Below are positions 15,880-60,010 of a stretch of DNA of 64,000 nt, in pieces. The stretch's first letter is position 1; the number at the start of each line of letters is the position of its first letter. The translations under genes were made by a program, and so were the position numbers. The notes beneath the pieces were generated by a model, which was not told the DNA's origin, did not search any database, and was given only the letters and a program-made list of their open reading frames with translations. The stretch covers positions 1,152,001-1,216,000 of the forward strand of contig CBDBLV010000005.1 in NCBI GenBank assembly GCA_965207225.1, given 5' to 3'. This DNA is from Dehalococcoidia bacterium (GTDB lineage: Bacteria > Chloroflexota > Dehalococcoidia > Plut-88900).

Positions 15880-16683
15880 ATGGCCACACTAGCTGATCCG
15901 AGCACTCAGATACAGGCGCGAAAGGCGGGTTTTGTCAACGAGGTTGCCGCCGTGGCGCGTCGGGCGCTGCGTTCCACGAAGCGGGACACGGAGAGCGTTA
16001 TCCCGGCGCTTATCATTCCGGTGTTCTTCTTCATTGTTAACGTCGGGGCGCTGCAGGATTTGGCGGAGACGCTGCCGGGCCTAGACTACAAGGCGTTCCA
16101 GCTTCCGGTGGCGATCATATTCGCTGTGACGGGGATTTCCCGGGCCGTGACCCTGGTGCTGGACATACAGTCTGGGTACTTTGACCGGCTGTCTCTCACG
16201 CCGGTGAACCGGCTGGCTTTGCTGTTCGGGTTGATGGTGGCGGACTTTGTGCTAGTAGTGGCGCTTACGCTGCCCGTGGTTGCGCTGGGGTTCATAGTCG
16301 GTGTGAGATTTGAAAGCGGGCCGGTGGGGGTAATCGTCTTCATACTGATCTCGGGGGTCTGGGGTCTGGTGTACACGGGGTTCCCATACGCAATCGCATT
16401 CAAGACAGGGAACCCTGCTGCGGTAAACACATCGTTCCTGCTTTTCTTCCCCTTCGCCTTTCTCACGACGGCGTTTCTGCCGAAGGACGCCATGACGGGA
16501 TGGCTGTCCGCCGTTGCCACCTATAATCCCGTGACGTATCTGCTGGAGGGGCTAAGGTCATTGCTGCTGGTCGGGTGGGACGTGGAGGCGCTCTTAAAGG
16601 GGCTAGCGGCGGTGCTGGGGGTGGGGGTGGTGAGCATGACACTGGCGCTACTGGCGCTACGAGGGCGGACACTGCGGCGGTGA
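15880..16683 (+). CDS. ABC-2 type exporter permease
   Basis: About 6 TM segments, DIQSGYFDRL, NPVTY. Confidence 0.88.
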   Translation: MATLADPSTQIQARKAGFVNEVAAVARRALRSTKRDTESVIPALIIPVFFFIVNVGALQDLAETLPGLDYKAFQLPVAIIFAVTGISRAVTLVLDIQSGYFDRLSLTPVNRLALLFGLMVADFVLVVALTLPVVALGFIVGVRFESGPVGVIVFILISGVWGLVYTGFPYAIAFKTGNPAAVNTSFLLFFPFAFLTTAFLPKDAMTGWLSAVATYNPVTYLLEGLRSLLLVGWDVEALLKGLAAVLGVGVVSMTLALLALRGRTLRR

Positions 16684-16752
16684 AAATTGCCGTTTCCTTA
16701 TCAGCCCGGTATCACGTAATATAGCCCGAGCCCTCTCCAAGGAGCCGCAGAT

Positions 16753-17559
16753 TTGAACAAGCTCGACTATTCGGCGGTCGACCTACCGATTATCCGCCAC
16801 TACATGTTCTATCCTCGACCCGATTCCTCTCCCCCGTCCAATGGGGCAGTCGACCACTTTTACTCAGCGCATGACGGGGTCGAGCTGTGCGGTCGATTTT
16901 ATCCGGAGGACAAGGGAAGCCCCACCATACTGTTCTTTCATGGGAACGGAGAGGTAGCGCCGGAGTATGACGGCATCTCGTCGCTGTACAACCATATCGG
17001 GTTGAACCTGTTTGTGGCCGATTACCGGGGCTACGGGAAAAGCCACGGGGAGCCGTCAATATGCGCATTGGCGGAAGACAGCTACACAACGCTGACCACG
17101 TTGGAAAAGATGCTCAGGGAGCAGGGATACAACTCCTCCATTTACGTCATGGGGAGGTCGCTCGGGGCGTATTGCGCGGTGGAGATTGCGGCGGGGGCGC
17201 GGGAAAGCATCAAGGGAATCATCCTTGAAAGCGGCTCGGCGAATGTCGGGGGGATGCCTACGAGACTTGGCATCGCGAATAGACCTGACATCGCCAAGCT
17301 CATTCAGGAGCACTGGGACCGGGTCAAGGGAATCGAAACCCCCCTGCTTACGATCCACGGGGACCGGGACGACCTGGTGCCCATCTCCCATGCCGAGGAG
17401 CTCTACGATGCCATGGCCTCAAAAGACAAGACGTTCTTCACGATTCCCGGCGCGGGCCACAACGACATCATGTACGTGGACACGGACGGATACTTCCAGG
17501 CAATCCGGGACTTCGTGAGGCGGATAGAGGGCGTCAACTCTTCTTCCCTTCACGCATAG
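16753..17559 (+). CDS. Alpha/beta hydrolase
   Basis: FFHGNGE, DYRGYG, GRSLG, IHGDRDDLVP, GAGHND. Confidence 0.9.
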   Translation: MNKLDYSAVDLPIIRHYMFYPRPDSSPPSNGAVDHFYSAHDGVELCGRFYPEDKGSPTILFFHGNGEVAPEYDGISSLYNHIGLNLFVADYRGYGKSHGEPSICALAEDSYTTLTTLEKMLREQGYNSSIYVMGRSLGAYCAVEIAAGARESIKGIILESGSANVGGMPTRLGIANRPDIAKLIQEHWDRVKGIETPLLTIHGDRDDLVPISHAEELYDAMASKDKTFFTIPGAGHNDIMYVDTDGYFQAIRDFVRRIEGVNSSSLHA

Positions 17560-17998
17560 TAACCAGCTCTTTGATGATCCTGTTCACGTGCCGGCCTATC
17601 CCCACAACGATATATTCGTTGGCTGAGCGGATAACGCCCTCTTCATCGATCAGGTAGGTCGTCCTGAAACCTCCCAGGACCCGCATGGACTGGTAAGCAT
17701 TCCTTATCTTTCTGTCGGGATCCGAAAGGAGTATGGCCTCAAGGCCGAGGTCTTCCCGGAATCGGGCGTTGACCTCGGGCTTGTCGGGGCTGACACCAGC
17801 GACGAGGGCGTTGTGCTGTTTGAAGGCTTCTACTGCATCACGGAAGCCCTTAGCCTGGATGCGTCAGAGGAGGCCGTAGGCGCCGTTGTAGAAGTAGAGG
17901 ACCACCGGCTGACTGCCGAGGTTATCGCTGAGTCTGAACTTCTCTCCGTCGTGGCGCACGGCCTCGAAGTCCGGGGCCTTTGTTCCTACCTTTAACAT
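17534..17998 (-). CDS. Peroxiredoxin (BCP/PrxQ-like), probable selenoprotein, divergent copy
   Basis: Absent from the ORF track. Manual translation [11 protein letters not shown]...[13 protein letters not shown]-[TGA 17864-17866]-RIQAKGFRD...GVSPD...LLSDPD...[13 protein letters not shown], 154 aa; GGAGG RBS. Confidence 0.82.
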
Positions 17999-18060
17999 TC
18001 CAACCTCCCGTCTAACTCGTGTTCGTCAATCTTGCACAGTCGCTTGTGTACATCTGGCGA

Positions 18061-18564
18061 CTAGACTCCCGGGGCTCGGGCGAGGCCATCCCTAGCCTCC
18101 AATAATCCACTTTTATCCAGGGCCTTCAGCCCTTCCATGACATCGTCAACATGCTTCCCGATCCGGAATTCGTGGTGGAAGACGCCCCTGACAACGCCGT
18201 CTCTGTCGATGAGATAGGTCACGCGGGACACCCCGAGTCCGAATCTACGGACGACGCCGTAGAGGCGGACGATTTTCTTGTCGGGGTCGGGGAGAAGGGT
18301 GAAGGGGAGGGAAAAGCAGGCGCGGAACCGCTGGTGACTTTCGGGGCGGTCGGGGCTAATGCCGACCAGGTCTGCTCCGTATCCCTTGATGGCTTCGTAT
18401 GCGTCACGGAAGCCCTGCGCCTGGCGGTTTCAGCCAGCGGTGAAGTTCTTGGGGTAGAAATAGAGTACGGCGGGCCTGCCGGCCCTCCATTCGGAGAACC
18501 GGAACTCCCTGCCGTCGTGGCGGAGGGCGTTGAAATCGGGGGCCAATGCCCCGGGCTTGAGCAT
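18061..18564 (-). CDS. bcp: Peroxiredoxin (BCP/PrxQ), probable selenoprotein
   Basis: Absent from the ORF track. MLKPGALAPDF...VLYFYPKNFTAG-[TGA 18430-18432]-NRQAQGFRD...GISPD...RVTYLIDRDGVVR, 167 aa; TGA sits at the C of PxxxTxxC. Confidence 0.88.
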
Positions 18565-18739
18565 TCAGTTTTCCGCTTTTGAGAGATATCTGCAATTCTA
18601 CACCACGCCCACGCGGGTCACGGGGGGGTATTGTCCCTCAGGCGCCGGGCTGGCGGGAAGGGGCCTGACTCGGGGGTGGGGTTTGGGGTAGACTCTCCTC
18701 ACGCCCCGATAGGATGAAAACAACGCTGGAGGTGAAGAT

Positions 18740-19573
18740 ATGTTCGTAAGAAGGCTGGAGGACCTGGCCGGTACAGACAAGGAGATGGTCAGGACTGATG
18801 GGAACAGGAGACTGCAATCGAGGCGGTTGGTGACAAAGGCGGACGGCGCAGGATTTTCCATGTCGGACGTCAGGATATCGGAGGGCTGGGTGATCGACCT
18901 TTGGTACAAAAACCACGTTGAGGGGAACCTGGTGGTGAGCGGCGACCTGCACGTGGAGAACCTGGTTAACGGCGACAGCTGGGACCTGGGCGCGGGCGAC
19001 CTGTATGTGGTCGGGCCGAAGGACCGGCACCGGCTGACGGCCAACAGCGACGTCCACTTAGTCAGCGTCTTCAATCCCGCCACGCTGGGTACCGAGACCC
19101 ACGACGCTGATGGTTCCTATCCGCCCACCGGAGAACTCCCCCCCGAGTGGCAGGGAGAGGATGGCCGGACAATGTTCGTGAAGCGGCTGGCGGACACCAA
19201 GGTGGTTGGGATCAGCCACGGGAAGTCGACGGCATACCGGTATCTCAACCAGCCGGAGGGGTGGGGTTTCACCATGTCGACGCCGCGTTCGCCGGCGGGC
19301 AAGGGGATAGTGCTGTGGTACAAGAACCACGTGGAGGCGAACTACATCCTGGAGGGCGAGGGCACGGTGGAAGACCTAACGACGGGGGAGAAGTGGGACC
19401 TGGCCCCGGGCACGATGTATTTTGTCGGGCCGAAGGACAGGCACCAGACGGTTAAGTTCAGCGACACATACCTCCTGAGCGTGTTCAACCCACCCCTGGT
19501 GGGGCATGAGACCCACGACGAAGAGGGGACGTACACGCCGTCGGGGCCAATCCCCGAGGCCTGGAGGCCGTAG
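18740..19573 (+). CDS. Double-domain ectoine synthase (EctC)-like cupin, copy 1
   Basis: Two repeats of MFV.RL...WYKNHVE...LY.VGPKDRH...SVFNP...ETHD..G.Y. Confidence 0.85.
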   Translation: MFVRRLEDLAGTDKEMVRTDGNRRLQSRRLVTKADGAGFSMSDVRISEGWVIDLWYKNHVEGNLVVSGDLHVENLVNGDSWDLGAGDLYVVGPKDRHRLTANSDVHLVSVFNPATLGTETHDADGSYPPTGELPPEWQGEDGRTMFVKRLADTKVVGISHGKSTAYRYLNQPEGWGFTMSTPRSPAGKGIVLWYKNHVEANYILEGEGTVEDLTTGEKWDLAPGTMYFVGPKDRHQTVKFSDTYLLSVFNPPLVGHETHDEEGTYTPSGPIPEAWRP

Positions 19574-19595
19574 AGACCAACCCGGAGGAGGACCC

Positions 19596-20429
19596 ATGTT
19601 CGTTAGAAGAGTCGATGACCTTAACGGGACCGACAAAGAGATGCTGGTGGAAAAGGACGGGGGCAGGCTGCAGGGCAGGCGGCTACTGACCAAGGAAGAC
19701 GGTTGTGGCTTCTCCTTTTCCGATGTGCGTATATCCGCGGGGTTCAGTGCGGACCTGTGGTACAAGAACCACGTGGAGGGGAACCTGCTGGTGTCGGGGG
19801 AGATGGAAGTGACGGAGCATTCGAGCGGCAACAGCTGGCAGTTGAGCGCGGGAGACCTGTACGTGGTCGGGCCGAGGGACCGACATCGGGGGACTGCGAA
19901 GACCGATTGCCACATCATCAGCGTGTTCTCTCCCGCCACGGTGGGCAACGAGAGGCACGATGCCGACGGCTCCTACCCGCCAACCGGGGAGATTCCCCCG
20001 GCCTGGCAGGGGGAGAACGGCCGCACGATGTTTGTGAGGAGGCTGTCCGAGACCCGGGTGGTGGGGATCAGCCACGGTCGGACCAAGGCATACCGCTACC
20101 TGACCCACGACGACGAATGCGGTTTCACTATCTCGACGCCGCGGGCACCTGCAGGCCAGGGGATCGTGCTTTGGTACCAGAACCACGTGGAGGCGAACTA
20201 CGTCTTCGAGGGTGAGGGCACCCTGGAGGAGAAGAACACGGGCAAAAAGTGGGACGTTGGGCCGGGTACACTGTACGTGGTCGGGCCGAAGGACCCACAC
20301 CAGCTGACCTCGAACACGGGATTCTACGTGATGAGCGTATTCAACCCGCCGCTCTACGGCGGAGAGACGCACGACGACCAGGGCGCTTATCCGCCCACGG
20401 GGCCTATTCCGGAGGCCTGGCGCCCGTAG
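19596..20429 (+). CDS. Double-domain EctC-like cupin, copy 2
   Basis: Same two-domain layout; GGAGGAGG RBS before ATG 19596. Confidence 0.85.
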   Translation: MFVRRVDDLNGTDKEMLVEKDGGRLQGRRLLTKEDGCGFSFSDVRISAGFSADLWYKNHVEGNLLVSGEMEVTEHSSGNSWQLSAGDLYVVGPRDRHRGTAKTDCHIISVFSPATVGNERHDADGSYPPTGEIPPAWQGENGRTMFVRRLSETRVVGISHGRTKAYRYLTHDDECGFTISTPRAPAGQGIVLWYQNHVEANYVFEGEGTLEEKNTGKKWDVGPGTLYVVGPKDPHQLTSNTGFYVMSVFNPPLYGGETHDDQGAYPPTGPIPEAWRP

Positions 20430-20517
20430 CTCAACAGCACACAGTCGATGAGATAGCGTGGCTGCTCATACTTGGCTCTATCGGGTATGAGCGGCCTCTT
20501 CATTTGCAGGTGGAATC

Positions 20518-21462
20518 ATGTTCGTAAGGACGCACGAGGATATCGCAGGGACCGAGAACGAGATGGTGCGGAGGGACGGGGACAAGTCACTGCGGTCTTT
20601 GAGGATGTTGACCAAGGCCGACGGTTGCGGCTTTTCGCTGTCGGATGCGTACTTTTCGGCGGGCTTCTCCCTTGACCTGTGGTACAAGAACCACGTGGAG
20701 GCCAACTTCATATTGAGCGGGGTGGTGCAATTGGACGATGTGACCTCGGGCGGGAGCTGGAACCTGGAAGGAGGGTCTCTGTACATGGTCGGGCCGAGGG
20801 ACAAGCACCGGCTGACTGCGAAAAGCGACGTACACCTGGTCAGCGTGTTCTGTCCGGCCGTGCTGGGAAACGAAAGACACGACGCGGACGGGGCCTTCCC
20901 CCCGACGGGCGACATCCCCCCGGCATGGCAAGGCCCCGACGGCCATACCATGTACGTCAGGACGCGGGATGAGGCACGGGAGGTGGGCATCAAGCACGTA
21001 GGGACGGAGGCGCGGCGATACCTCACGCAGTCTGACGGGTGCGGGTTCACCATATCCACGGCACGGCCGCCAGCCAAGTCGGGGGCCGACTTGTGGTACC
21101 GGAACCACGTGGAGGCGAACTACATCATAGAGGGCGAGGGGTCGGTGGAAGACTTGAACACGGGAGAGAAGTGGGACCTGGCGGCGGGGAGCCTGTACGT
21201 GGTCGGGCCGAGGGACCGGCACCGGATGAGTGCGCATAGCGAGGTCTATCTGATGGCGGTGTTCAACCCTCCGCTGGTGGGGGATGAGACGCATGACGAG
21301 CAGGGAGGTTATCCGCCCACCGGGGTGGTGCCGGAGGGGTGGGGGGTTGTAAGGGCTATGCAGAAACCACCTGAACTGTTAAGGACGAAACACGGGGACG
21401 CTACCCTTTGTGGTCTCTATCACTCCCTGACGTCGATAATCTCAAATTCGGCGAGCGGATAA
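20518..21462 (+). CDS. Double-domain EctC-like cupin, copy 3
   Basis: Same layout; C-terminus runs about 37 aa beyond the paralogs' PEAWRP end. Confidence 0.85.
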   Translation: MFVRTHEDIAGTENEMVRRDGDKSLRSLRMLTKADGCGFSLSDAYFSAGFSLDLWYKNHVEANFILSGVVQLDDVTSGGSWNLEGGSLYMVGPRDKHRLTAKSDVHLVSVFCPAVLGNERHDADGAFPPTGDIPPAWQGPDGHTMYVRTRDEAREVGIKHVGTEARRYLTQSDGCGFTISTARPPAKSGADLWYRNHVEANYIIEGEGSVEDLNTGEKWDLAAGSLYVVGPRDRHRMSAHSEVYLMAVFNPPLVGDETHDEQGGYPPTGVVPEGWGVVRAMQKPPELLRTKHGDATLCGLYHSLTSIISNSASG

Positions 21463-22994
21463 ATTTCGGGGTTCTGTGTTCTCGTAACTCCGATACCTCC
21501 GGCAATCAACACCCGCCCGTCGGACAAGACGGTTGCAGAGTGGTTCACTCGCGGTTTGGACAATTCCGGGCCCAGAGACCAAAGACCTGTAGCGGGATCA
21601 AAGATTTCGGTAAATGAGACAAAAGTCTGCTCTTCTGTAGACGAGGTCTGGATGTCCGAAGATTCCCACGGAAGCTCCACTCTGGCTCCTCCAGCAGCGA
21701 GCACTCGTCCGTCGGGCAGTAGAGACAGGGTAGCCGAGGCTCGCGGGTGAACCATCAGTCCCGCGGGGACCCATAGGTCGGTGCTGGGATCAAATACTTT
21801 AGCTCCAAAAAACCGGGCCTTGAAATCCGCCTCGGATATGCGGGCCCCGTCCGGGAGTTGGACGGATAGTATTTCGGTATCGTCATATTCGATGACTAGG
21901 TGAGTACCGTCAGGGAGCCGAAGAGTGTCGACTCCAGGGGAGCGTTCTACAGGAGTCGCATTATCGATTGCAATGTAATCGCCGGTTACCAACAACCTCT
22001 CATCGGCGAGTTCAACACCGTCTAAGTACACAAAGTAAGGATCAATACTTTCCAATGCGCTCCATTGGTCAGAGTCTGGATCGTAAACCTCTGCATGAAG
22101 AACAGTCGAGTCATAATCCAAAAGCACCGTTCCGATGGCCAGAACCCGACCATCTTCCAGTAAGAAAAGGTTCTGTTCTTCCATCGTCTCCTGTGTAGAT
22201 GCCGCTCGTGTCCAAGTTCCGGTTGAAGGATCGAAAATCTCTGAGGAATTCAGTTTATCGGGATTGGAGAAATATGCGATGTCGTCTGGGGTTACAGCCA
22301 AGCCAGCAGTCATGAAGACGCGTCCATCCTGAAGAAGAAGCAGATTAGGGAGAGCTCGGAGGGCAGAAGGGGGTGGCGCTGCAACCCAGGAATCCGAGTT
22401 TGCGTCGAACAGAGCGGCCATAGGAACAAACTCGCCGTCTTCATGAACTCTTACACCGACCATGAGAACTCTATTATCGGCTAACTCCACCAAGGAATAG
22501 AACGCTCCTGGGCCTTCGATAGGCTCCAATACAGTCCATTCTTCAGTGGAAGGGTCATAAATCTGGATGGGTCCAACCACAGCGTGAATGATCACGTTAT
22601 TGTTGGCTACCAGGCCGGTAATGCCGCCAGCTACTAGGACTCGGCCGTCTTCCAACGCAATCCCAGAATGTTGGAAGACTGGGGCGAACATGTGCGGGCC
22701 TGTAGTTTCCAGCCCCTGAATAGAGAGTGGCGTTGGGGCGGGGCGGGTGCCAGGTACTCCAGTAATGGTCGCGGTAGGGGCAGGTACGCTTGAGGCTGTA
22801 GGAGCAGGCGTTGGGGCACCCAGCAATTCGGGGCTGAGAGATGGGGAAACCGAGGTTGGGGAAGACGGCAATAGCGGGCTAGGGGACGGGGAAACAGGTG
22901 TAGGGGAAGGACCGAAAGACGATGGGTCTTCTATACAGCCTTGGGCTAGAGCCAAGGATAGCAGAAGGCAAAGGACCAGAAACCAGAGTTTCAT
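21420..22994 (-). CDS. Kelch-repeat (beta-propeller) lipoprotein
   Basis: Signal peptide with lipobox-like LAQGC, Pro/Ser/Thr linker, repeated L.DGRVL..GG and E.FDP.T..W motifs. Confidence 0.82.
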   Translation of the reverse strand: MKLWFLVLCLLLSLALAQGCIEDPSSFGPSPTPVSPSPSPLLPSSPTSVSPSLSPELLGAPTPAPTASSVPAPTATITGVPGTRPAPTPLSIQGLETTGPHMFAPVFQHSGIALEDGRVLVAGGITGLVANNNVIIHAVVGPIQIYDPSTEEWTVLEPIEGPGAFYSLVELADNRVLMVGVRVHEDGEFVPMAALFDANSDSWVAAPPPSALRALPNLLLLQDGRVFMTAGLAVTPDDIAYFSNPDKLNSSEIFDPSTGTWTRAASTQETMEEQNLFLLEDGRVLAIGTVLLDYDSTVLHAEVYDPDSDQWSALESIDPYFVYLDGVELADERLLVTGDYIAIDNATPVERSPGVDTLRLPDGTHLVIEYDDTEILSVQLPDGARISEADFKARFFGAKVFDPSTDLWVPAGLMVHPRASATLSLLPDGRVLAAGGARVELPWESSDIQTSSTEEQTFVSFTEIFDPATGLWSLGPELSKPRVNHSATVLSDGRVLIAGGIGVTRTQNPEIYPLAEFEIIDVRE

Positions 22995-23045
22995 ATTGAA
23001 GAGGCCGTCAACAAACGGTTTTGACCTATCCGAGGTCTGGACACC

Positions 23046-24179
23046 CTAGTTCAGCCCGTACAGCGTCGCTGCATTCTCGCCAACTATCTTGACGGTTTCG
23101 TGCTGGGGGATGTCGTGGAAGTCCTTGGCGATCTGTTGCCGGGAGAAGGGGAATACGCCCTCGGGGTGGGGGTAGTCGGAGCCCCACATCAGCCTGTCCA
23201 CGTCGAGGAGCTCGCGGGTTAGAAGGCCGGCTCGGTCATCTTCGAACGTGGCCCAGAACTGTCGGAAGAAGTAGCTGCTGGGCGGCTCTTCCAGCTTGGG
23301 CTCCATCCAGTGGCGGTGATCCTCCCACCAGTGGTCGTTGAGGCGCAGGACGCTCGGGATCCAGCCGATACCGCCTTCGGCCATAACGAATTTCAGGCCG
23401 GGGAAGGCCTGGGGGACGCCGGAAAGAATGAGGTCGGTGAGGCCACGGGCCACGGCGCATATCTTCTGCTCAATAACTGCGACGCCGACGCCCATACTGC
23501 GGTACTTGTCGGCGCTAACGGACTTTGTGCTTGAACCGACGTGAAACCCCAAGGGCAGGCCGACATCCTGTAGGGCACCCCAGAGCCGGTCGCCACCTTC
23601 CATGTTGACGTATCCACCTTCAATTTCCAGGGGAAGCATTACGGATTTCAGCCCCAACCTAGCGCACCTCTCAACCTCGGCGATCTTGCTTTCGGTGGAG
23701 CCGCGCATGGGCAGGATGCCGACGCCCATGAGGCGGTCGGGTGAGGAGGCGCTGAACTCGGCGATCCAGTCGTTGTAGACGCGGACGATTTCGATGTGGA
23801 GGTCGGCGTCGGAGGCGTTGTAACACCAGAGACCGAAGACGCCGGGGTACATGATCTCGGCGCGGATGCCGTCCAGGTCCTGGTCCTTGAGGCGCTCGAC
23901 GGGGTCCCAGGCGCCGGGTCGGGTGTCCTCATAGCGGAGGCCGGCCATGTGGATCTCTTTGCCCTCGGCCTTGTCGGTGGCAGCGGTGCCCTCGCCTGAG
24001 AGTCCGATGGCGAACTCGCCGAAACCCTCCATCACGTAGAAGTCGCCTGAGTCCCGGGACTCGATGTGGGGGGCCTTGGCGGCCATCTTGCTGTCCATTC
24101 GAGACGTGAACAGGTCCCTGGGCTCCACAATGTGTCCGTCAGCGGAAACATAGCCTCCGGAAAGGGTGGTCGTTGACAT
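23046..24179 (-). CDS. Amidohydrolase_2 family protein
   Basis: SADGHIVEP, FHVG, AEGGIGW, LMWGSDYPHPEG. Confidence 0.9.
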   Translation of the reverse strand: MSTTTLSGGYVSADGHIVEPRDLFTSRMDSKMAAKAPHIESRDSGDFYVMEGFGEFAIGLSGEGTAATDKAEGKEIHMAGLRYEDTRPGAWDPVERLKDQDLDGIRAEIMYPGVFGLWCYNASDADLHIEIVRVYNDWIAEFSASSPDRLMGVGILPMRGSTESKIAEVERCARLGLKSVMLPLEIEGGYVNMEGGDRLWGALQDVGLPLGFHVGSSTKSVSADKYRSMGVGVAVIEQKICAVARGLTDLILSGVPQAFPGLKFVMAEGGIGWIPSVLRLNDHWWEDHRHWMEPKLEEPPSSYFFRQFWATFEDDRAGLLTRELLDVDRLMWGSDYPHPEGVFPFSRQQIAKDFHDIPQHETVKIVGENAATLYGLN

Positions 24180-24290: not shown

Positions 24291-25247
24291 ATGGGCAAAT
24301 CTGAAGACCGGCTGATGCCCGAGGCCTGGCAGGACGGGCCCCGGTACGGCAGCCCCAGCACCTTTATGCAAGTACCCGGCACGCGGGACCTGTCCAGGGC
24401 CGACGTGGCGGTGGTCGGGCTACCGCTGGACCTGGGAACGATAATTCGGTCGGGGGCGAGGTTCGGGCCGAGAGGGATACGGACGGCGTCGATGCACGTC
24501 GGGCTGCACGGTTTGGACGAAGCGGAACTTCGGGAGCCTTTCAAGAGCCTCCGGATTGTCGATTACGGCGATATCGAGCTGACCTACGGGTACATAGAGG
24601 AGGCGGTGAATAGGATAGAAAACGCGGTTTCGGAGATAATCTCGCATGACGTGTTCCCGGTGTGTCTCGGGGGCGACCATACGGTGTCGCTGCCCATACT
24701 GCGGGCGCTGTACAAGAAGCACGGGAAGATATCGCTGGTGCACTTCGACGCCCACCCCGACTTCTGGGAGCCGTCCAAGGACATGCCCCTCCATCATGGC
24801 ACCATGTTCCGGATCGCCTCGGACGAAGGGATCATGGATCCAAAGACGTCGGTGCAGGTGGGGATAAGGGGTCGGCCGGCCATGGGGATATTGGACAACG
24901 TAAGAGAGGCGGGCATCACGGTGATCACCGGCGAGGAGTTCTGGCACACCGGGGTTGATGCGACCATCGAGAAGATTAAGGAAGCCACGAAGAGTCGGCC
25001 GGTGCACATTTCGTACGACATCGACAGCGTTGACCCGGGTTTTGCGCCGGGAACCGGTACGCCGGAGGTTGCGGGACTGACGAGTCGGGAGGCGATGGCG
25101 TTGGTGAAGGGGCTGAAGGGAATCGGGACGGTGGGGTTCGATATTGTTGAGGTTGCCCCAGCCTACGACACGTCGGAGATAACCGCTCTGCTGGCGGCAA
25201 ACCTAACATTGCAGTTCATGCTGACCCTGGTCCCGGACAAAGAGTAG
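24291..25247 (+). CDS. speB: Agmatinase/ureohydrolase family amidinohydrolase
   Basis: GARFGP, GGDHT, DAHPD, SYDIDSVDPGFAPGTGTP, VEVAP; exact substrate uncertain. Confidence 0.85.
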   Translation: MGKSEDRLMPEAWQDGPRYGSPSTFMQVPGTRDLSRADVAVVGLPLDLGTIIRSGARFGPRGIRTASMHVGLHGLDEAELREPFKSLRIVDYGDIELTYGYIEEAVNRIENAVSEIISHDVFPVCLGGDHTVSLPILRALYKKHGKISLVHFDAHPDFWEPSKDMPLHHGTMFRIASDEGIMDPKTSVQVGIRGRPAMGILDNVREAGITVITGEEFWHTGVDATIEKIKEATKSRPVHISYDIDSVDPGFAPGTGTPEVAGLTSREAMALVKGLKGIGTVGFDIVEVAPAYDTSEITALLAANLTLQFMLTLVPDKE

Positions 25248-25265: not shown

Positions 25266-25637
25266 ATGGCTTCAAAGAGGACTTTTGAAGACTGGCTGGA
25301 GGGGGTGGAGCCCAGGCTGAGGCCAATGGCCCTGGGGCTGAGGCGGATGTTCCTGGATGCTGAGCCGGGGTTGGGGGAGTCGATCAAGTGGGGCAACCCC
25401 TGCTTTGAGAAGAAGCTGAGGGTGTTCTACCTGGCTTCGCAGGGGGACAGGTATATTACGCTGGGTTTGTGGCAAGGGGCACTTCTTCCGAACTCGGAGG
25501 GGCTGATCGAGGGGACGGGGAAGAGGATGAGGCACGTCAAGATCAGGACTGCAGAGGAGTTGGAGAACCCGGAGGTGGGGCGGATAATCCGGGAGGCGGT
25601 GGAAATAGACGGGACGGAGGGTACGAGTAACCGGTAG
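25266..25637 (+). CDS. DUF1801 (YdhG-like) protein
   Basis: ESIKWGNPCF, GALL...LIEGTGKRMRHVKI. Confidence 0.85.
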   Translation: MASKRTFEDWLEGVEPRLRPMALGLRRMFLDAEPGLGESIKWGNPCFEKKLRVFYLASQGDRYITLGLWQGALLPNSEGLIEGTGKRMRHVKIRTAEELENPEVGRIIREAVEIDGTEGTSNR

Positions 25638-25898: not shown

Positions 25899-27149
25899 AT
25901 GGTTGACCATGCCGTCGAGGAGCGCGTCCTGCGCCAGATCAAGACCGAGCAGACCGTCAAGCTGGCCAGCGACCTAATCTCCATACCCAGCTTCAAGACC
26001 GAGGAGCAGAAGGTCGCACGGTTCCTGGCTCGATTCTTCCAGCGCCGCGGCTACGAGGTTGATCTACAAGAAGTCGAGCCGGGCCGGTACCAGACGATCG
26101 CGACGCTGAAGGGGTCGGGTGGGGGTAAGAGCCTGATGCTGAACGGGCACATAGACATCGACCCCTTGGCCATGGGCTGGGTGCGGGAGCCGTTCACGCC
26201 CAGCTGGGAAGGCGACCGGCTGTACGGGGCGGGCGTCAACAACATGAAGGGCGGCGTAACCGCAATCATCACTGCCGCCGAAGCGATTCGGAAGGCCAAG
26301 GCCCCGATGAAGGGCGACCTTGTCGTGGCGTGCGTGGTTGGCGAGCTACAGGGGGGTGTCGGGACAGTCTACGCGTTGAAAAACGGTATGAGGACGGATG
26401 GGGCGTACGTGGCTGAACCCACGGGCGACGGGGACAACATTATGACGACCCATGCAGGCGTGGTTGAACTGGCGATCAGCACGATTGGGCTGTCACAGCA
26501 CGTGAGTCGGTCTCACCTGGCCGTGGATGCGCTGGAGATGATGACAAAGGCTATCCCAGCAATCAAGAACGTGGACTTCACATACGAACACAGGCCCGAC
26601 CTGCCAGACCTGCCGCGAATCATTTGCGGGACGATTATCGGGGGTCGGGGGAGGAACCACGACCTGAAGGGGCCAAATTTCACCTGCGACTACTGTACGG
26701 TGATAGTCGATGCCCGGATAGTCCCCGGGCAGTCCCACGTCACGGTGAAGGCCGACCTGGACAGGGTGATGAGCAAATTCAAGGAAGAGGACCCGAACTT
26801 CGAATACGAGATCGTTACGCCCGTGCCACCCGAGTACAAGGTAATGACCGAGTTCATGAACCCGCTGGACGTTCCGAAGGACAACGTGATAGTGCAGAAC
26901 CTGGAGAAGGCATACACGAGGGTGTCGGGGCGGGCGCCGGATAAGGTCGGGGCTATTCTGACGCAGTCATACGCAGGCAACGACAGCTGCCACATCTGGG
27001 AGGCGGGGATACCGGTGTGTCTGATGGGGGCGGAGAACGGTCGGGACCAGAAGGGCGAACCCGACTCCTACGTCATAGTGCCGAGCATGGTGCAGTTGGC
27101 GAAGACGTACGCGATGGCGGCGCTGGACTGGTGCAACCAGGAGAAGTAG
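25899..27149 (+). CDS. M20 (ArgE/DapE-like) deacylase, copy 1
   Basis: LMLNGHID, LYGAGVNNMKGG, VVGELQGG, VAEP. Confidence 0.88.
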   Translation: MVDHAVEERVLRQIKTEQTVKLASDLISIPSFKTEEQKVARFLARFFQRRGYEVDLQEVEPGRYQTIATLKGSGGGKSLMLNGHIDIDPLAMGWVREPFTPSWEGDRLYGAGVNNMKGGVTAIITAAEAIRKAKAPMKGDLVVACVVGELQGGVGTVYALKNGMRTDGAYVAEPTGDGDNIMTTHAGVVELAISTIGLSQHVSRSHLAVDALEMMTKAIPAIKNVDFTYEHRPDLPDLPRIICGTIIGGRGRNHDLKGPNFTCDYCTVIVDARIVPGQSHVTVKADLDRVMSKFKEEDPNFEYEIVTPVPPEYKVMTEFMNPLDVPKDNVIVQNLEKAYTRVSGRAPDKVGAILTQSYAGNDSCHIWEAGIPVCLMGAENGRDQKGEPDSYVIVPSMVQLAKTYAMAALDWCNQEK

Positions 27150-27174: not shown

Positions 27175-28419
27175 ATGGATGCAAGCGCAAAGCAGAAAGT
27201 CCTCTCCAAGATCAGGGACCGGGAGGTCGTAGACCTTTGCAGCAACCTGCTGCGGATCCCGAGCTTCAAGACGGAGGAGCAGAAGGTTGCCAGGTACCTG
27301 GCCGGCTACTTCCGGCGCCGGGGGTACGAGGTTGATCTGCAGGAGGTGGAGCCGGGTCGGTACCAGACGATAGCGACGCTTAAGGGGTCGGGCGGGGGGA
27401 AGAGCTTGATGCTGAACGGTCACATAGACATCGACCCCCTGGCCATGGGCTGGGCCCGAGACCCCTGGAGTCCAAGCTGGGAGGGCGACCGGCTCTACGG
27501 GGGCGGCGCTTTCAACATGAAGGGCGGCGTGGCGTCGATGATATCCGCGGCGGAGGCGATACGGAAGTCGGGGGTGGGGTTGAAGGGGGACATCGTGGTG
27601 GCGTGCGTTGTGGGTGAGCTGCAGGGAGGAGTGGGGACGGTGCATGCCTTGGAGAGCGGAGTATCGGCGGACATGGCCATTGTTGCGGAGCCTTTCGGGT
27701 CACGGACCATCATGACCACCCACGCAGGCGTTATAGGGATGGCGATAAACACCCTGGGCTACTCCACGCACATCACGGTGCGGGAGCAGGGAGTCGACGC
27801 CATAGCGAAGATGATGAAGGTGATCGATGCGGTGGACAAGGTCGAACTCAGGCACACGCCCCACCCCGAGCTGCCGGGTCTGCCGCGTATCAACTGCGGG
27901 GCAATCATAGGGGGTCGGGGGAGGGACCAGGACCTAAAGGGGCCCAACTATGTAAGCGATTTCTGCACCTCCATCTGGGACGTGCGGATTGTTCCGGGCC
28001 AGACCGCGGAGACCGTGGAAGAGGATGTTCGTAAAGTTCTCGAGGCTCTTGGCGCCGAGGACCCGGACTTAAGGTGGGAAGTAGAGATTCCACCGCCCGC
28101 CAAGTACAAGGGTGTGGCGGTCACCATGGACCCTGTGGACATCCCGAGGGACGAGTATATAGTCGGGGCGGTGGCGCGGGCGATGGAAGAGCACACAGGT
28201 TCGCCACCGGAGAATATCGGGGCAATTCTTCCCCGTTCATATGCGGGGAACGATACCTGCCACCTCTGGAAAGCGGGCATCCCGTGCGTGCTCAACGGCC
28301 CCGGGGGCGACCGAACCTTCGATGACGTGCCGGACACCTTTGTCTACGTAAGCGAGATGGTCGAGTGTGCGAAGACTCACGCCCTGACCGCACTTGAAGT
28401 CTGCAACCTGTCCGCCTAG
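27175..28419 (+). CDS. M20 (ArgE/DapE-like) deacylase, copy 2
   Basis: Clear paralog of copy 1 with the same motifs. Confidence 0.88.
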   Translation: MDASAKQKVLSKIRDREVVDLCSNLLRIPSFKTEEQKVARYLAGYFRRRGYEVDLQEVEPGRYQTIATLKGSGGGKSLMLNGHIDIDPLAMGWARDPWSPSWEGDRLYGGGAFNMKGGVASMISAAEAIRKSGVGLKGDIVVACVVGELQGGVGTVHALESGVSADMAIVAEPFGSRTIMTTHAGVIGMAINTLGYSTHITVREQGVDAIAKMMKVIDAVDKVELRHTPHPELPGLPRINCGAIIGGRGRDQDLKGPNYVSDFCTSIWDVRIVPGQTAETVEEDVRKVLEALGAEDPDLRWEVEIPPPAKYKGVAVTMDPVDIPRDEYIVGAVARAMEEHTGSPPENIGAILPRSYAGNDTCHLWKAGIPCVLNGPGGDRTFDDVPDTFVYVSEMVECAKTHALTALEVCNLSA

Positions 28420-28433
28420 CCGGGAGACTGACA

Positions 28434-29681
28434 ATGGCTACCCAAACACTAGAAAGAGTAACAAACCGGGTGAAGGAGGACTGGCTCGTCTCCTTCGCGA
28501 GGAAGCTGATCGACATACCCAGCTTCAAGACCGAGGAGTCGCAGATCGCCTTGTTTCTCGCATCGAATTTCCGGCGCTGGGGATACGATGTTGACCTGCA
28601 GGAGGTCGATCCCGGGCGATACCAGGTGATAGCGACGCTGAAGGGCTCGGGGGGCGGGAAGACACTGATGCTGAACGGCCATATAGACCAGGACCCGCTA
28701 TCCATGGGCTGGAAACGAGACCCGTGGACCTCCAGCGTAGAAGGCGACCGGCTGTACGGGGCGGGAATCTACAACATGAAGGGCGGGGTAGCGTCGATAG
28801 TTGCGGCGGCGGAGGCGGTGCGTCGGTCAAAGGCGGCTCACAAGGGCGATATCCAGGTTGCCTGTGTGGTGGGAGAGCTGCAGGGGGGAGTCGGGACGGA
28901 GTATGCGCTGGAGCACGGGTACCGGCCCGACATGGCCATAGTCGCAGAGCCCAACGATGCGGATACCGTCCTCACCGTACACGCCGGGTGGCTGGAAATC
29001 GCAATTCACGTCCTGGGCAGGTCGCGGCACATAAGCCAGAAGGAGACGGGGGTCAACGCCATCCAGAAGATGTCAAAGGCCATTGAGGCCATCAACGGGC
29101 TTGAACTCACTCACACCCACTTCCCAGCGCTTCCCTCTCTCCCCCGGCTGCACGTTGGCGCCATAATCGGAGGGCAGGGCAGGAACCACGTTATCAACGG
29201 GCCCAACTTCGTCCCCGACTTCTGCACGGCGTTAGTGGATGGCCGGATGGTGCCGGGGCAGAGCTCAGAGGTGGTACTCGAGGATGTGCGGCGGGCTTTG
29301 GACGGGATCAAGGAGTCGGACCCCGACTTCGAATACGAACTGGAGATGCCACCCGATCCCGAGTACCGCGTCCTCCGCACCATCATGGAGCCGATGAATA
29401 TGTCCGCCGACGAGGAGATAGTGAAAGCGGTGGGTCGGGGGTACAAGGCGGTGACGGGTGGAGAGCTGGCGCACGTCGGCAGCAAGCTGCCGAACTCCTA
29501 CTCGGGGAACGACACTACGCACCTGTGGCAGGCCGGGATCCCCTGCGTCCTATACGGCCCCGGGGGCAACTGGGACGCTGCCGTAGACGAACCCGACCAC
29601 TACATCCGCATCAGCGATATGGTGACCGCAGCCAGGGTAATGGCTGCGACGGCGCTGGACGTTTGCAATCAGGAGGCCTGA
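28434..29681 (+). CDS. M20 (ArgE/DapE-like) deacylase, copy 3
   Basis: Clear paralog with the same motifs. Confidence 0.88.
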   Translation: MATQTLERVTNRVKEDWLVSFARKLIDIPSFKTEESQIALFLASNFRRWGYDVDLQEVDPGRYQVIATLKGSGGGKTLMLNGHIDQDPLSMGWKRDPWTSSVEGDRLYGAGIYNMKGGVASIVAAAEAVRRSKAAHKGDIQVACVVGELQGGVGTEYALEHGYRPDMAIVAEPNDADTVLTVHAGWLEIAIHVLGRSRHISQKETGVNAIQKMSKAIEAINGLELTHTHFPALPSLPRLHVGAIIGGQGRNHVINGPNFVPDFCTALVDGRMVPGQSSEVVLEDVRRALDGIKESDPDFEYELEMPPDPEYRVLRTIMEPMNMSADEEIVKAVGRGYKAVTGGELAHVGSKLPNSYSGNDTTHLWQAGIPCVLYGPGGNWDAAVDEPDHYIRISDMVTAARVMAATALDVCNQEA

Positions 29682-54228: not shown

Positions 54229-55698
54229 ATGAACGCTTCGCAACCTCTCCACGCTCTCACCATCCACGACGCATCCGAACTGCTGGCGCGCCGCCAGATC
54301 TCCTCTGTAGAGCTTACGGAGGCCGTGCTGGCCCGCATTGAGGGAGTGGATGAGAGGGTCAAGGCTTTCGTTACGGTCACTGGGGATAGGGCGATGGAAG
54401 AAGCGCGGGCGTCGGATGAGAGACGGGGTGCAAGAAGGCTCGGGCCCCTGGACGGGGTGCCGATGATGCTGAAGGACAACCTCTGCACGAACGGCATTAG
54501 AACCACGTGCTCCTCCAAAATGCTAGAGAACTTCGTGCCGCCCTATGATGCCCACGTTACGGAGCGGCTGCGGGAGTCGGGGGCGGTTATGGTGGGGAAG
54601 GGCAACCTTGACGAGTTTGCGATGGGGTCTTCGACGGAGAACTCGGCGTATTTCACGACGAGTAACCCCTGGGACCTGGGTCGGGTGCCGGGGGGGAGCA
54701 GCGGGGGAGCAACGGCTGCGGTGGCGGCGGGGGAGGCAATGTATTCGCTGGGCTCCGACACGGGCGGCAGCATCCGGCAGCCGGCGTCCTTCTGCGGGGT
54801 GGTGGGATTGAAGCCGACCTACGGGGCGGTGAGCAGGTACGGGCTGGTGGCCTTCGGGAGCTCGCTGGACCAGATAGGCCCGATTACCAAGGACGTGAAG
54901 GACAGCGCGCTGGTGATGAACGTGATTGCGGGGCACGATGCACGGGACTCGACGTCCGTACCATTTGAGCCGCCGGACTACACTGAATCCCTGGTGCCGA
55001 ACATCAAGGGGATGAGGATAGGGGTACCGAAGGAGTATTTTGTCGAGGGGATGGGGCAGGACGTGGTCGACGTTATAGGGAGAGCCATTGCCAAGCTTGA
55101 GGAGCTGGGGGCGGAGGTAGAACGCGACGTATCCTTGCTCCACACGAAGTACGCACTGGCGGTGTACTACATCATTGCTCCCTCGGAGGCGTCGGCGAAT
55201 TTGGCCCGGTACGACGGTGTGAAGTACGGGTACTCGGCGCAGGATGCGGGGAGCATGTGGGAGGCGATGGAGAAGACGCGGCAGCACGGGTTCGGGCCCG
55301 AGGTGAAGCGGCGGATAATGCTCGGGACCTATGCTCTGTCGTCGGGCTACCACGATGCTTACTACCTGAAAGCGCAGAAGGTGAGGACGTTGATACGTCG
55401 TGAGTTCGAAGAGGCGTTTGAGCGGTACGACGCCCTGGTAGCGCCGACTTGCCCGACTCCGGCCTTTGAGCTCGGGGCGAAGACCGACGACCCCGTGCAG
55501 ATGTACCTGAGCGACATTTGCACCATCCCGGCGAACATTGCTGGCATCCCTGCGATCTCGGTGCCGGCGGGGTTTTCGTTCGGGCTGCCGGTGGGGATGC
55601 AGATCATGGCCAAGGCCTTTGGGGAGCCGACCCTCTTCAGGCTGGCCTACGCCTACGAGCAGTCGATGGGGTGGCGGCACCTTCGGGCGCCGGTCTAA
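54229..55698 (+). CDS. gatA: Asp/Glu-tRNA amidotransferase subunit A
   Basis: NLDEFAMGSSTENS, PGGSSGG, GSDTGGSIRQP, EVKRRIMLGTYALS.GY.DAYY. Confidence 0.96.
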   Translation: MNASQPLHALTIHDASELLARRQISSVELTEAVLARIEGVDERVKAFVTVTGDRAMEEARASDERRGARRLGPLDGVPMMLKDNLCTNGIRTTCSSKMLENFVPPYDAHVTERLRESGAVMVGKGNLDEFAMGSSTENSAYFTTSNPWDLGRVPGGSSGGATAAVAAGEAMYSLGSDTGGSIRQPASFCGVVGLKPTYGAVSRYGLVAFGSSLDQIGPITKDVKDSALVMNVIAGHDARDSTSVPFEPPDYTESLVPNIKGMRIGVPKEYFVEGMGQDVVDVIGRAIAKLEELGAEVERDVSLLHTKYALAVYYIIAPSEASANLARYDGVKYGYSAQDAGSMWEAMEKTRQHGFGPEVKRRIMLGTYALSSGYHDAYYLKAQKVRTLIRREFEEAFERYDALVAPTCPTPAFELGAKTDDPVQMYLSDICTIPANIAGIPAISVPAGFSFGLPVGMQIMAKAFGEPTLFRLAYAYEQSMGWRHLRAPV

Positions 55699-55837
55699 GA
55701 AGGCCCGGCACTTAACCTCGCAAGTAATCTTCTTAGATTCGCCCATGCTTCGACAGGCTCAGCACAGGCAGTGTGAGTACGGTGCATTTTGCTATACTCA
55801 CAGGACTCCTCCCGAGTCTTTATTTCCTGACGACACT

Positions 55838-57379: not shown

Positions 57380-57423
57380 TGATTTCGTATGTAGGTTGCC
57401 TTGATCAGAAGGGAGAAGGGAAG

Positions 57424-58584
57424 ATGAAACAGGCTACATGGCAGTATTGCACGCTGGAGGAATACCAGGGCAGGCTGGATGCGCTGAGGGCTCGCATGGA
57501 GGCCAAGGGCGTGGACTGCATGATGGTGCACACGCCGGAGAACCTGTGCTACCTGACGGGATATCAAACGCCCGGCTACTACTGGTACCAGACCCTCATC
57601 GTGCCCATGGACCGGGAGCCGGTCTTCATCACCAGACTCCTCGAGAACTCCAACGTGGAGCACCTTACCTGGGTGGAGGACAGCCGGCCCTACGGTGACT
57701 CGGACGACTGGGTAAAGCAGACCAAAGACACACTTGTCGATCTGGGCATGGGGTCGAAGAGGATTGGGGTGGAGATGGGCTCCTGGTTCATAACCATCTC
57801 GGACTATCAACGTCTCCAGGGGATGCTGCCGGATGCACAGTGGGTGGACTGCTCGATGATGGTGGAAGAGGGCCGGATGATCAAATCGCCGCAGGAAATC
57901 GAGTACATCACGCAGGCGGCGAGGGCCACGGAGGCGGGGGTAGTGGCCGGCATCGAGGCCTCGGCGGTGGGGGCGACGGAGAATGAGGTAGCGGCGGCAG
58001 TGTATGCGGCGCAAATCAAGGCTGGCAGCGAGTACACGGGCCTGCCGCTGTTCGTAACGGCGGGCAAGAGGTCGTTCCTGGGCCACGTGACGTGGTATCG
58101 AGAGACGATTCAGGCGGGGGACACGGTGTTCCTTGAGATATCGGGGTGCATAAACCGGTATCACGCATCGCAGATGCGGAACGTGTACCTGGGGGACCCG
58201 CCGGAGGCGTCGGTAAGGGCGACGGGTGTGATGGCCACGGCCCTGGAGGAGATGATCAAGTTCATCAAGCCGGGGGTCAGGGCGCACGACGCCCACATGG
58301 TCTGCAAGAACGTTATCGGGGACGCGGGGCTGGGGGTAGAACTCAATCACCGGGCGGGATATTCCATCGGCATAGCCTTCGCACCTGACTGGGGGGAGGG
58401 CCACATCATCAGCCTGAACGAAGGCGAGTACCGGGAATTGCGTCCCGGCATGACGTTCCACCTGATCCCGGCGGTCTTCATACCGGGCCTGACGTCGGTG
58501 GGGGTGAGCGAGACGGTGCTTGTTACGGAGTCGGGGTGCGAGCCGATAACGGGGAACGTTGAGAGGAAGCTGTTTTCGAAGTAG
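57424..58584 (+). CDS. M24-fold DoeA/EutD (ectoine hydrolase)-like protein, copy 1
   Basis: LEEYQGRL, IKSPQEIEY, HVTW, FLEISGCINRYHA, GYSIGIAFAPDWGE, PGMTFH. Confidence 0.8.
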   Translation: MKQATWQYCTLEEYQGRLDALRARMEAKGVDCMMVHTPENLCYLTGYQTPGYYWYQTLIVPMDREPVFITRLLENSNVEHLTWVEDSRPYGDSDDWVKQTKDTLVDLGMGSKRIGVEMGSWFITISDYQRLQGMLPDAQWVDCSMMVEEGRMIKSPQEIEYITQAARATEAGVVAGIEASAVGATENEVAAAVYAAQIKAGSEYTGLPLFVTAGKRSFLGHVTWYRETIQAGDTVFLEISGCINRYHASQMRNVYLGDPPEASVRATGVMATALEEMIKFIKPGVRAHDAHMVCKNVIGDAGLGVELNHRAGYSIGIAFAPDWGEGHIISLNEGEYRELRPGMTFHLIPAVFIPGLTSVGVSETVLVTESGCEPITGNVERKLFSK

Positions 58585-59880: not shown

Positions 59881-60010
59881 GGGTAAGCGAGACGGAATGG
59901 CGGGAGTGAACCCCGCCCCCGCTCGACCCTTCGACTCCGCTCAGGATGAGCGGCCCCGCCGCCCCAGAGAAAATATACAGGAGTTATCTGTAAACGGGTA
60001 AGGAGTGAAG

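Follow-up and report, generated by a model that had tools for sequence, protein, structure and literature searches.

Three tandem genes specify fused pairs of EctC domains

We analysed a 64,000-nt stretch of a Dehalococcoidia bacterium genome (G000:C5:1152001-1216000; hereafter the window), in which three genes, W1, W2 and W3, are arranged head to tail on the + strand and each specify a protein with two ectoine synthase (EctC) domains in one chain. The genome comprises 4.03 Mb in five contigs and is 92.3% complete with 8.3% contamination. Canonical EctC is a single cupin domain of about 130 amino acids (aa) that forms a head-to-tail homodimer. The features of the array are as follows, in window positions.

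18740-19573, +: W1, double EctC protein of 277 aa; PF06339 matches twice, E 2.6e-64; GGAGG 5' of the ATG
About 18740-19159, +: N-domain of W1 (aa 1-140)
About 19160-19570, +: C-domain of W1 (aa 141-277)
19596-20429, +: W2, double EctC protein of 277 aa; PF06339 matches twice, E 2.3e-63
19596-20015, +: N-domain of W2
20016-20426, +: C-domain of W2
20460-20496, +: hairpin between W2 and W3, with a 16-bp stem and a T-rich tail (consensus scan)
20518-21462, +: W3, 314 aa; PF06339 matches twice, E 1.4e-66
20518-21348, +: core of W3, 277 aa
21349-21459, +: C-terminal tail of W3, 37 aa

The Pfam model PF06339 (Ectoine_synth) gives each protein 212-223 bits (cut-off 27) and each domain 101-116 bits, and the NCBIfam model NF009806, named 'ectoine synthase', matches W1, W2 and W3 in two stretches each (219-227 bits; cut-off 128). 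A previous reading of the DNA made from its letters alone (the sequence-only reading) had proposed three tandem genes with six EctC domains; both models bear this out, matching twice per gene, and the domains fall inside the EctC family (E 1e-63 to 1e-66). The motifs it listed are likewise present exactly as claimed, the linker PPTG(E/D)(L/I)PP.WQG..G.TM in all three genes and WY(K/Q/R)NHVE in all six domains. The repeat unit spans MFV(R/K)R to YPP(T/S)G.(I/L)P.AW and, because the second unit begins only 4-5 residues beyond the end of the first (...PPEWQGEDGRT-MFVKRL...), the join looks like two neighbouring EctC genes read through.

The mechanically called open reading frame (ORF) of W2 starts at 19506; its real start is most likely the conserved Met of MFVRR at 19596, behind a GGAGG. 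W3 lacks the family's usual stop after ...PE.W.. and continues for 37 codons, so that its tail (21349-21462, +) overlaps by 43 nt the 3' end of a convergent Kelch-repeat lipoprotein gene (21420-22994, -). The orthologues of W3 at two loci in relatives (L017 and L025) are 277 aa long and the tail is absent from them. The hairpin at 20460-20496 may be a terminator or attenuator separating W1-W2 from W3, to which the terminator-consensus scan lends weak support (3 sites found, 1.8 expected). Rfam gave no family match in window positions 16500-23500, and so no riboswitch sign hinting at a ligand, and a promoter scan found no sigma-70-like site.

The genome encodes seven double EctC proteins and lacks recognisable ectA and ectB

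A six-frame search of the genome with PF06339 recovered 14 domains, all above the cut-off, and none in 14 control genomes. These domains make up seven double EctC genes, three in the window and four on contig C1 (C1 56472-60063); the same search found no single-domain EctC in this 92.3% complete genome. The four C1 genes are:

C1 56472-57305: double EctC, 277 aa
C1 57467-58300: double EctC, 277 aa
C1 58372-59205: double EctC, 277 aa
C1 59230-60063: double EctC, 277 aa

The sequence-only reading had noted the absence of ectA and ectB beside the array, and this holds for the 4.03-Mb genome as a whole: the EctA model has no match, and the EctB model matches 13 aminotransferases, none of which passes (best 196 bits, cut-off 552). 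EctA exceeds its cut-off in just 2 of 29 other carrier genomes. In being encoded away from ectAB, the double proteins resemble the solitary EctC-type proteins, such as that of P. syringae B728a, placed in groups 1-3 in the accessible text of Czech et al. 2018 (PMC5924519); they differ from canonical EctC in lacking ectA and ectB and in occurring here as seven copies in arrays beside hydrolases.

Both halves retain the EctC metal site and lid but not three substrate contacts

Residues carry P. lautus EctC numbers, transferred through an HMMER alignment between 5ONO and the W1 C-domain (E 1.2e-24), after which all domains were aligned; family-wide counts refer to 124 full-length double proteins. 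Both halves belong to the same Pfam family as the structurally defined EctC of P. lautus (5ONM, 5ONN, 5ONO) and S. alaskensis (5BXX, 5BY5). According to the accessible text of PMC6344544, which is the source of all statements on that enzyme, the P. lautus protein binds iron through Glu57, Tyr84 and His92, contacts its substrate N-gamma-acetyldiaminobutyrate (N-gamma-ADABA) through Trp21, Arg25, Asn38, Thr40, Tyr52 and Glu57, and contacts ectoine through Ser23, Asn38, Tyr52, Glu57 and Phe106.

Arg25, Tyr52, Glu57, Tyr84, His92 and Phe106 are present in all 14 domains of the genome, including the six of the window, in which the sequence-only reading had located the iron-binding Glu, Tyr and His. 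The C-terminal lid motif (FNP.. G.E.HD..G.Y; FNPP..G.E.HD..G.Y in the form shared with EctC) is intact in both halves, and the stretch WYKNHVEA is identical to that of EctC. Family-wide, Glu57 is kept in 116/124 N-domains and 122/124 C-domains, Tyr84 in 123/124 and 119/124, and His92 in 123/124 and 121/124, respectively. In contrast to EctC, Trp21, Asn38 and Thr40 are replaced in every one of the 14 domains of the genome, and Cys104 has become Ser, Thr or Ala:

Position 21: Leu in N-domains; Ser, Thr or Ala in C-domains (Ser or Thr in those of the window)
Position 40: Val or Ala in N-domains; Pro or Ala in C-domains
Position 38: Ser or Ala in N-domains and in C-domains

The replacement of the N-terminal Trp was thus correctly seen from the sequence, as was the systematic difference between N- and C-domains, which positions 21 and 40 display across the 124 family members: Leu occupies position 21 in 84/124 N-domains, with Ala, Thr or Ser in the C-domains, and position 40 is Val in 94/124 N-domains and Pro in 79/124 C-domains. 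Position 51, a Trp in EctC, is His in the N-domains of the C1 paralogues C1a and C1b and in the C-domain of C1a; across the family it is Trp in 61 and His in 59 of the 124 N-domains, and Trp in 114/124 C-domains.

The loss of Trp21 sets the double proteins apart from the orphans, those EctC-type proteins encoded outside ect clusters. A Trp21Ala variant of P. lautus EctC has 9.7% of its activity left, and Trp21 is conserved even across 145 orphan EctC proteins (PMC6344544). Ser104 is common in both orphans and doubles, but the orphans described in the accessible text of that paper are single-domain proteins that keep Trp21 and most substrate residues, whereas the doubles are without Trp21, Asn38 and Thr40. 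Because the orphans are reported to keep Trp21 and the doubles do not, the pocket of the double proteins appears further from canonical EctC than that of any orphan described so far, with metal site and lid intact. As the three lost residues hold the amino-acid end and the amidinium of N-gamma-ADABA, the double proteins are probably not ectoine synthases; and as the EctC metal site (iron in P. lautus) and the lid are kept, both barrels are probably active.

The predicted fold is a bicupin

The sequence-only reading had interpreted the fusion as a covalent pseudo-dimer. Structure prediction yields a confident bicupin: the AlphaFold2 model of W1, built from a 125-row alignment, has a mean predicted local distance difference test score (pLDDT) of 95.9 and a predicted template modelling score (pTM) of 0.93. 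The best Foldseek matches are themselves bicupins, among them oxalate decarboxylase 6l9i (E 4.5e-15) and quercetinases. Aligned with VIA-align, the whole chain superposes on bicupins with Z of 20-23, led by YxaG 1y3t (Z 23.0, root-mean-square deviation (rmsd) 2.9 over 240 residues) and followed by DR1152 1sfn (Z 22.1) and ureidoglycine aminohydrolase 4e2q (Z 21.2). The model thus supports a compact two-barrel bicupin at the level of overall geometry. The classical bicupins (1Y3T quercetinase, oxalate decarboxylase, 4E2Q/YlbA) share the two barrels with W1 over 222-241 residues (Z 21-23, rmsd 2.9-3.3). Unlike W1, with which they are 12-19% identical, they carry His-rich metal motifs, catalyse other reactions and contain no EctC-type domains.

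The fusion predates the expansion and all seven copies are maintained

Within the genome, N-domains are 44-87% identical to one another and C-domains 57-75%, with 38-50% identity between N- and C-domains. The pair C1a and C1b is 87% identical in the N-domains and just 69% in the C-domains, which would be expected of two sites each evolving under its own constraints.

We computed a quick maximum-likelihood tree of 131 rows, comprising the seven proteins of this genome and 30 of 117 other doubles (every fourth), each halved, together with 57 single-domain proteins. One clade, of 27 N-domains and two short 'single' proteins or fragments, takes in the genome's own N-domains, and another, of 16 C-domains, its own C-domains (Shimodaira-Hasegawa-like approximate likelihood ratio test, SH-aLRT, 96 for each). 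Because its N-domains and C-domains fall in separate clades, the tree argues that the fusion is older than the sevenfold expansion. Single-domain proteins bearing Trp21 and Thr40 sit elsewhere in the tree, apart from the doubles. The separation of the genome's own halves does not extend cleanly to the family: in the family-wide tree, which has 140 columns only, the N, C and single groups are not clean clades (9, 6 and 12 changes), and some of the 'single' proteins in it are probably incomplete doubles. When the tree is restricted to doubles (46 of 124, being every third plus the seven own proteins, with P0188 omitted as a long branch), the N/C label needs three changes, of which well-supported branches force only one; the fusion may thus have arisen just once in the family.

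Every paralogue has an orthologue in related species, and the ratio of nonsynonymous to synonymous substitution rates (dN/dS) against these orthologues is 0.02-0.30 across all seven (W1, 0.02-0.08; W2, 0.05-0.07; W3, 0.11-0.30), so that all seven are maintained by purifying selection. The seven also carry different pocket residues, and this variation suggests a set of related substrates. The sequence-only reading had described a triplication for different substrates. Its diversification of the copies stands, in that pocket residues differ and each copy is under purifying selection, whereas its number of three does not, there being seven; that the paralogues have different substrates is a step that we infer. 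In its main lines, two unlike sites in a fused pseudo-dimer that is present in diversified copies, that reading is right, and as a whole it is partly supported; it underestimated both the commonness of the family and the number of copies in the genome.

The family is widespread and is named 'ectoine synthase' in databases

At 90% identity, 470 protein clusters match with E <= 0.001. Of the 120 listed, most have lengths of 271-286 aa; the names given at source are 'ectoine synthase' or 'L-ectoine synthase', with a single 'quercetin dioxygenase-like cupin'. A library clustered at 50% identity gave 472 hits, 21 of them at E <= 1e-30, and the best hits in the ESM Atlas are proteins of about 275 aa, automatically named 'putative ectoine synthase' or 'L-ectoine synthase', whose family set recurs in 25 of the 30 nearest clusters.

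With one genome per species in GTDB, at least 326 loci encode a relative. We kept 73 of these for study, of which 66 passed an ORF filter for mapping. By taxon, the 73 comprise 34 loci from Alphaproteobacteria, 13 from Dehalococcoidia, 11 from Gammaproteobacteria, three from Rokuibacteriota, two from other Pseudomonadota, two from Thermodesulfobacteriota, one from another Chloroflexota lineage, one each from Gemmatimonadota, Binatota and Entotheonellia, and four without a phylum name; at least seven named phyla are represented, among them Chloroflexota, Pseudomonadota, Rokuibacteriota and Binatota. Two or more adjacent copies on the same strand occur in 23 of the 73, reaching five to six copies in both Dehalococcoidia and Alphaproteobacteria.

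Among 40 relatives of the window's genome, the domain is present in all 11 of the same family, the eight congeneric genomes having 7-14 domains each and three other genera two each; the 29 genomes from other families of the class gave no PF06339 match above the cut-off. Complete single-contig relatives carry either one six-gene array (G001, G002, G006) or a 4+3 split (G007, G008), and because the split is seen in these complete contigs too, that of the present genome is real and no assembly artefact.

Public sequencing runs containing the stretch or part of it number 22, from 11 studies, with no RNA among them. Sponge, marine or coral metagenome is the label of some runs with a share of about 0.3; this is evidence of neither habitat nor expression.

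The architecture had not been recognised as characterised in the sequence-only reading. In keeping with this, a full-text literature search, which reached few subscription journals, found no paper describing a fused or double EctC, and supplementary orphan-EctC alignments (PMC5924519, PMC6344544) might include double-length sequences; the accessible text of PMC5924519, PMC6344544 and PMC13342039 does not mention such a protein. The architecture is at the same time widespread, and databases already name it 'ectoine synthase'. The family is widespread and uncharacterised, and it is probably misannotated as ectoine synthase across databases.

Hydrolases and oxidases adjoin the arrays

Downstream of the window array lie the following genes:

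21420-22994, -: Kelch lipoprotein gene, convergent, directly after the array
23046-24179, -: Amidohydro_2 hydrolase (PF04909, E 4.4e-28), conserved beside the array in relatives
24291-25247, +: arginase-family ureohydrolase, agmatinase subfamily (PF00491, E 9.4e-90; NF002564, 308.7 bits, cut-off 302)
25266-25637, +: DUF1801 protein, conserved at the locus in relatives
25899-27149, 27175-28419 and 28434-29681, +: three tandem M20 (ArgE/DapE-type) deacylases (PF01546, PF07687)

The M20 deacylases score 189-205 bits against the NCBIfam model TIGR01910, under its cut-off of 217.6. On contig C1, a gene for an M24/Creatinase_N protein at 55231-56427 lies 45 nt 5' of the four-gene array on the same strand, preceded by one for a SoxB/ThiO-like FAD oxidase; downstream of the array are genes for a metallo-beta-lactamase (MBL)-fold hydrolase, an M16 peptidase and another Amidohydro_2 protein. 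In the relatives at loci L019-L021 a single locus holds DAO, M24, four to six double EctC genes, Amidohydro_2, an agmatinase-like gene, DUF1801 and three M20 genes, and the window array is half of this locus, which in those relatives is contiguous.

The best NCBIfam matches of the C1 M24 protein are two ectoine-hydrolase models (142 and 124 bits; cut-offs 575 and 613), and among solved structures the protein is closest, over its full length, to the ectoine hydrolase DoeA (6twk, E 6.5e-30), prolidases following at 3e-17. Because its 142 bits fall below the DoeA-model cut-off of 575, the protein is a paralogue of DoeA and not DoeA itself. A role in creatinine or creatine catabolism, considered on account of the Creatinase_N/M24 protein and the SoxB-like oxidase, was rejected, as the Protein Data Bank (PDB) hits at E <= 1e-5 include no creatinase and DoeA is the best.

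Neighbours were counted within 6 kb of double EctC genes at the 66 mapped loci. Amidohydro_2 proteins occur at 13 of these and alpha-only Rieske oxygenases at 12, in eight cases directly adjacent and on the same strand; the best NCBIfam model for the oxygenase is GbcA (143 bits, cut-off 670), and its PDB hits include carnitine monooxygenase and stachydrine demethylase. DAO and M24 are each found at eight loci, the arginase family at seven, TauD and M20 at six each, and deacylases of the AstE/aspartoacylase family (AstE/DoeB family) at seven, all alphaproteobacterial. Short-chain dehydrogenases/reductases, a glutathione-dependent formaldehyde-activating enzyme and ATP-binding cassette (ABC) importers are further neighbours at some loci. 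Five neighbour clusters from GC-rich proteobacterial loci (c9, c25, c26, c42, c63) look like Arg-rich shadow ORFs and were ignored.

The arrays thus recall the DoeA/EutD-DoeB/EutE system of ectoine catabolism, in that a DoeA-related M24 gene lies just 5' of arrays on C1 and in relatives and AstE/DoeB-family genes flank double EctC genes at seven alphaproteobacterial loci. They are unlike it in that the M24 protein is only a paralogue and the genome has no recognised DoeB; an EctC-type gene was not met in the accessible portion of the ectoine-catabolism literature.

Several further features of these loci were observed. Just upstream of the window array are two tandem Bcp/AhpC-TSA peroxiredoxin genes (17534-17998, -, and 18061-18564, -), each with one in-frame TGA at the expected peroxidatic Cys, one reading ...FYPKNFTAG-U-NRQ...; with TGA read as selenocysteine (U) the products, 167 and 154 aa long, are recognised by PF00578 (E 3e-32 and 4e-29). 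A SelB above the cut-off is encoded in the genome (326.6 bits, cut-off 242), and the pair are probably selenocysteine peroxiredoxins. Farther along the window, at 57379-58584, 58720-59880 and 60005-61186 (+), three M24 hydrolase genes of the DoeA/EutD-like type stand in tandem, part of a large genome-wide expansion of paralogues of this hydrolase. Every 2-kb bin of window positions 1-64000 has a positive GC skew, so that the cumulative skew climbs without a turn, and long ORFs near the array are mostly on the + strand. On C1, two small ORFs of 131 and 96 aa lie between the FAD oxidase and M24 genes (L090 8129-8811, equal to G000:C1:54129-54811, -); by eye they look like a VapBC-like pair of PIN-domain toxin and antitoxin. 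A 244-aa ORF without a Pfam match and low-coding DNA are nearby, and the region may be an insertion into the locus. In two more distant Dehalococcoidia (L027 and L028), a lone double EctC gene stands among three to five same-strand Amidohydro_2 paralogues, a context that may point to a partner enzyme different from that of the window's genus.

A putative role in the catabolism of nitrogen-rich small molecules

We propose, with a probability of roughly 0.5, that the double EctC proteins are metal-dependent (de)hydratases of cyclic amidines and N-acyl amines, with two different sites, that act in the catabolism of nitrogen-rich small molecules. Lewis-acid chemistry of the EctC kind would reversibly eliminate or add water between an amide (or ureido or guanidino) carbonyl and an amine, and this water step would close or open a cyclic amidine, on substrates that differ from the ectoine precursor. 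EctC itself is reversible on the cyclic amidines ADPC (5-amino-3,4-dihydro-2H-pyrrole-2-carboxylate), homoectoine and 4,5-dihydro-2-methylimidazole-4-carboxylate (DHMICA), according to the accessible text of PMC5924519, which cites Witt et al. 2011. The direction would be breakdown of ectoine-like, N-acylated or guanidino compounds rather than osmolyte synthesis, because DoeA-like M24 ring hydrolases, an FAD amine oxidase, an agmatinase-family ureohydrolase, ArgE/DapE-type deacylases and Amidohydro_2 proteins adjoin the arrays, and because the loci of Proteobacteria hold alpha-only Rieske oxygenases, TauD, AstE/DoeB-family deacylases and ABC importers.

A more specific form of this proposal, which we advance tentatively, is a new two-site class of ring-opening and ring-closing enzymes that would degrade N-acylated diamino acids and osmolytes of the cyclic amidine or guanidine type. 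A linear precursor, or an acyl isomer of the 'wrong' kind, would be cyclised to an intermediate in one barrel; ring opening by the second barrel, or by the adjacent DoeA-like hydrolase, would then yield the isomer that deacylases and ureohydrolases can process to the end.

Several observations weigh against a catabolic dehydratase role. Across the genome the DoeA/EutD model TIGR02993 has 28 matches, 23 of them near full length and none above the cut-off, and because of this number the M24 gene beside the array is a less specific neighbour than it appears; canonical DoeB was not found in the genome. Many mapped loci are without any recognised neighbour family, neighbours vary outside Chloroflexota, and the neighbourhood signal has strength only inside a single Dehalococcoidia genus; its members, being kin, amount to about one observation. 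Crude ORF calling in very GC-rich loci dropped 7 of the 73 loci from the maps, and 50 of the 73 have a single copy. Finally, the loss of Trp21, Asn38 and Thr40 could mean a different chemistry and not only a different substrate.

The same neighbours bear on an anabolic alternative, in which the proteins are cyclases that act on N-acyl or amide precursors to produce one or several cyclic amidine solutes other than ectoine, or building blocks of natural products. Ring closure is what EctC does by nature, the H. elongata enzyme making ADPC from glutamine (accessible text of PMC5924519), and biosynthetic clusters too can hold tandem diversified paralogues. Against this, the conserved neighbours are hydrolases, oxidases, oxygenases and importers, and no acetyltransferase/aminotransferase pair or biosynthetic core was recognised among those annotated, which are not all of them; we consider an anabolic role unlikely.

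We regard as a little less likely still the recruitment of the EctC scaffold to another bicupin reaction, such as that of an oxygenase, decarboxylase, isomerase or aminohydrolase; likeness to EctC would then tell little of the reaction catalysed. The whole-chain structural matches to quercetinases, oxalate decarboxylases and ureidoglycine aminohydrolase invite this idea, as do the three lost substrate-holding residues and the His51 of 59/124 N-domains, which could add a metal ligand or base. The unusual Glu/Tyr/His triad, together with Tyr52, Arg25, Phe106 and the lid, is nevertheless retained in both domains, and the match to P. lautus EctC stands at E 1.2e-24, whereas the other bicupin fold matches are at 13-19% identity.

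It is doubtful that just one barrel is catalytic, with the other a structural or regulatory stand-in for the second subunit of the EctC homodimer. Several bicupins have just one active site, and the N-site of the double proteins varies more, both at position 51 (Trp 61/His 59, against 114 Trp in C-domains) and in the loss of Glu57 from 8/124 N-domains as against 2/124 C-domains; yet the full triad and lid are present in both barrels of all seven proteins of the genome, and N-domains are conserved between orthologues as well as C-domains are, as judged from whole-gene dN/dS.

That these are ordinary ectoine synthases supplied with N-gamma-ADABA by uptake or another route, as proposed for the solitary EctC of P. 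syringae, is very improbable: the NCBIfam 'ectoine synthase' model is passed, the metal triad, Arg25, Tyr52 and Phe106 are kept and a solitary EctC functionally complements (accessible text of PMC5924519), but Trp21, which matters for activity and is conserved in orphans (PMC6344544), is replaced with Asn38 and Thr40 in 14/14 domains, EctA is absent here and in 27 of the 29 other carriers, and one substrate hardly explains seven diverged copies.

Implications for ectoine prediction and for the role of EctC-type proteins

Ectoine producers are predicted from genomes and metagenomes with EctC as the signature gene. Because the family is named 'ectoine synthase' and yet is without the precursor-binding residues and without ectA, carriers of double EctC genes would be wrongly scored as producers. 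What EctC-type proteins do outside ect clusters is stated to be unresolved in the accessible text of PMC5924519 and PMC6344544, and the double proteins offer a tractable entry to the question, combining a confident model, two distinguishable sites, natural pocket variants within one genome and adjoining candidate partners. Enzymes of this kind, should they prove to open cyclic amidines or to convert them into one another, would bring a further step into the turnover of nitrogen-rich osmolytes. Were the tentative ring-opening and ring-closing scheme true, marine and soil bacteria could, with their tandem arrays of as many as six genes, feed on a wide range of such compounds, and the role of orphan EctC-type proteins would find its answer in catabolism.

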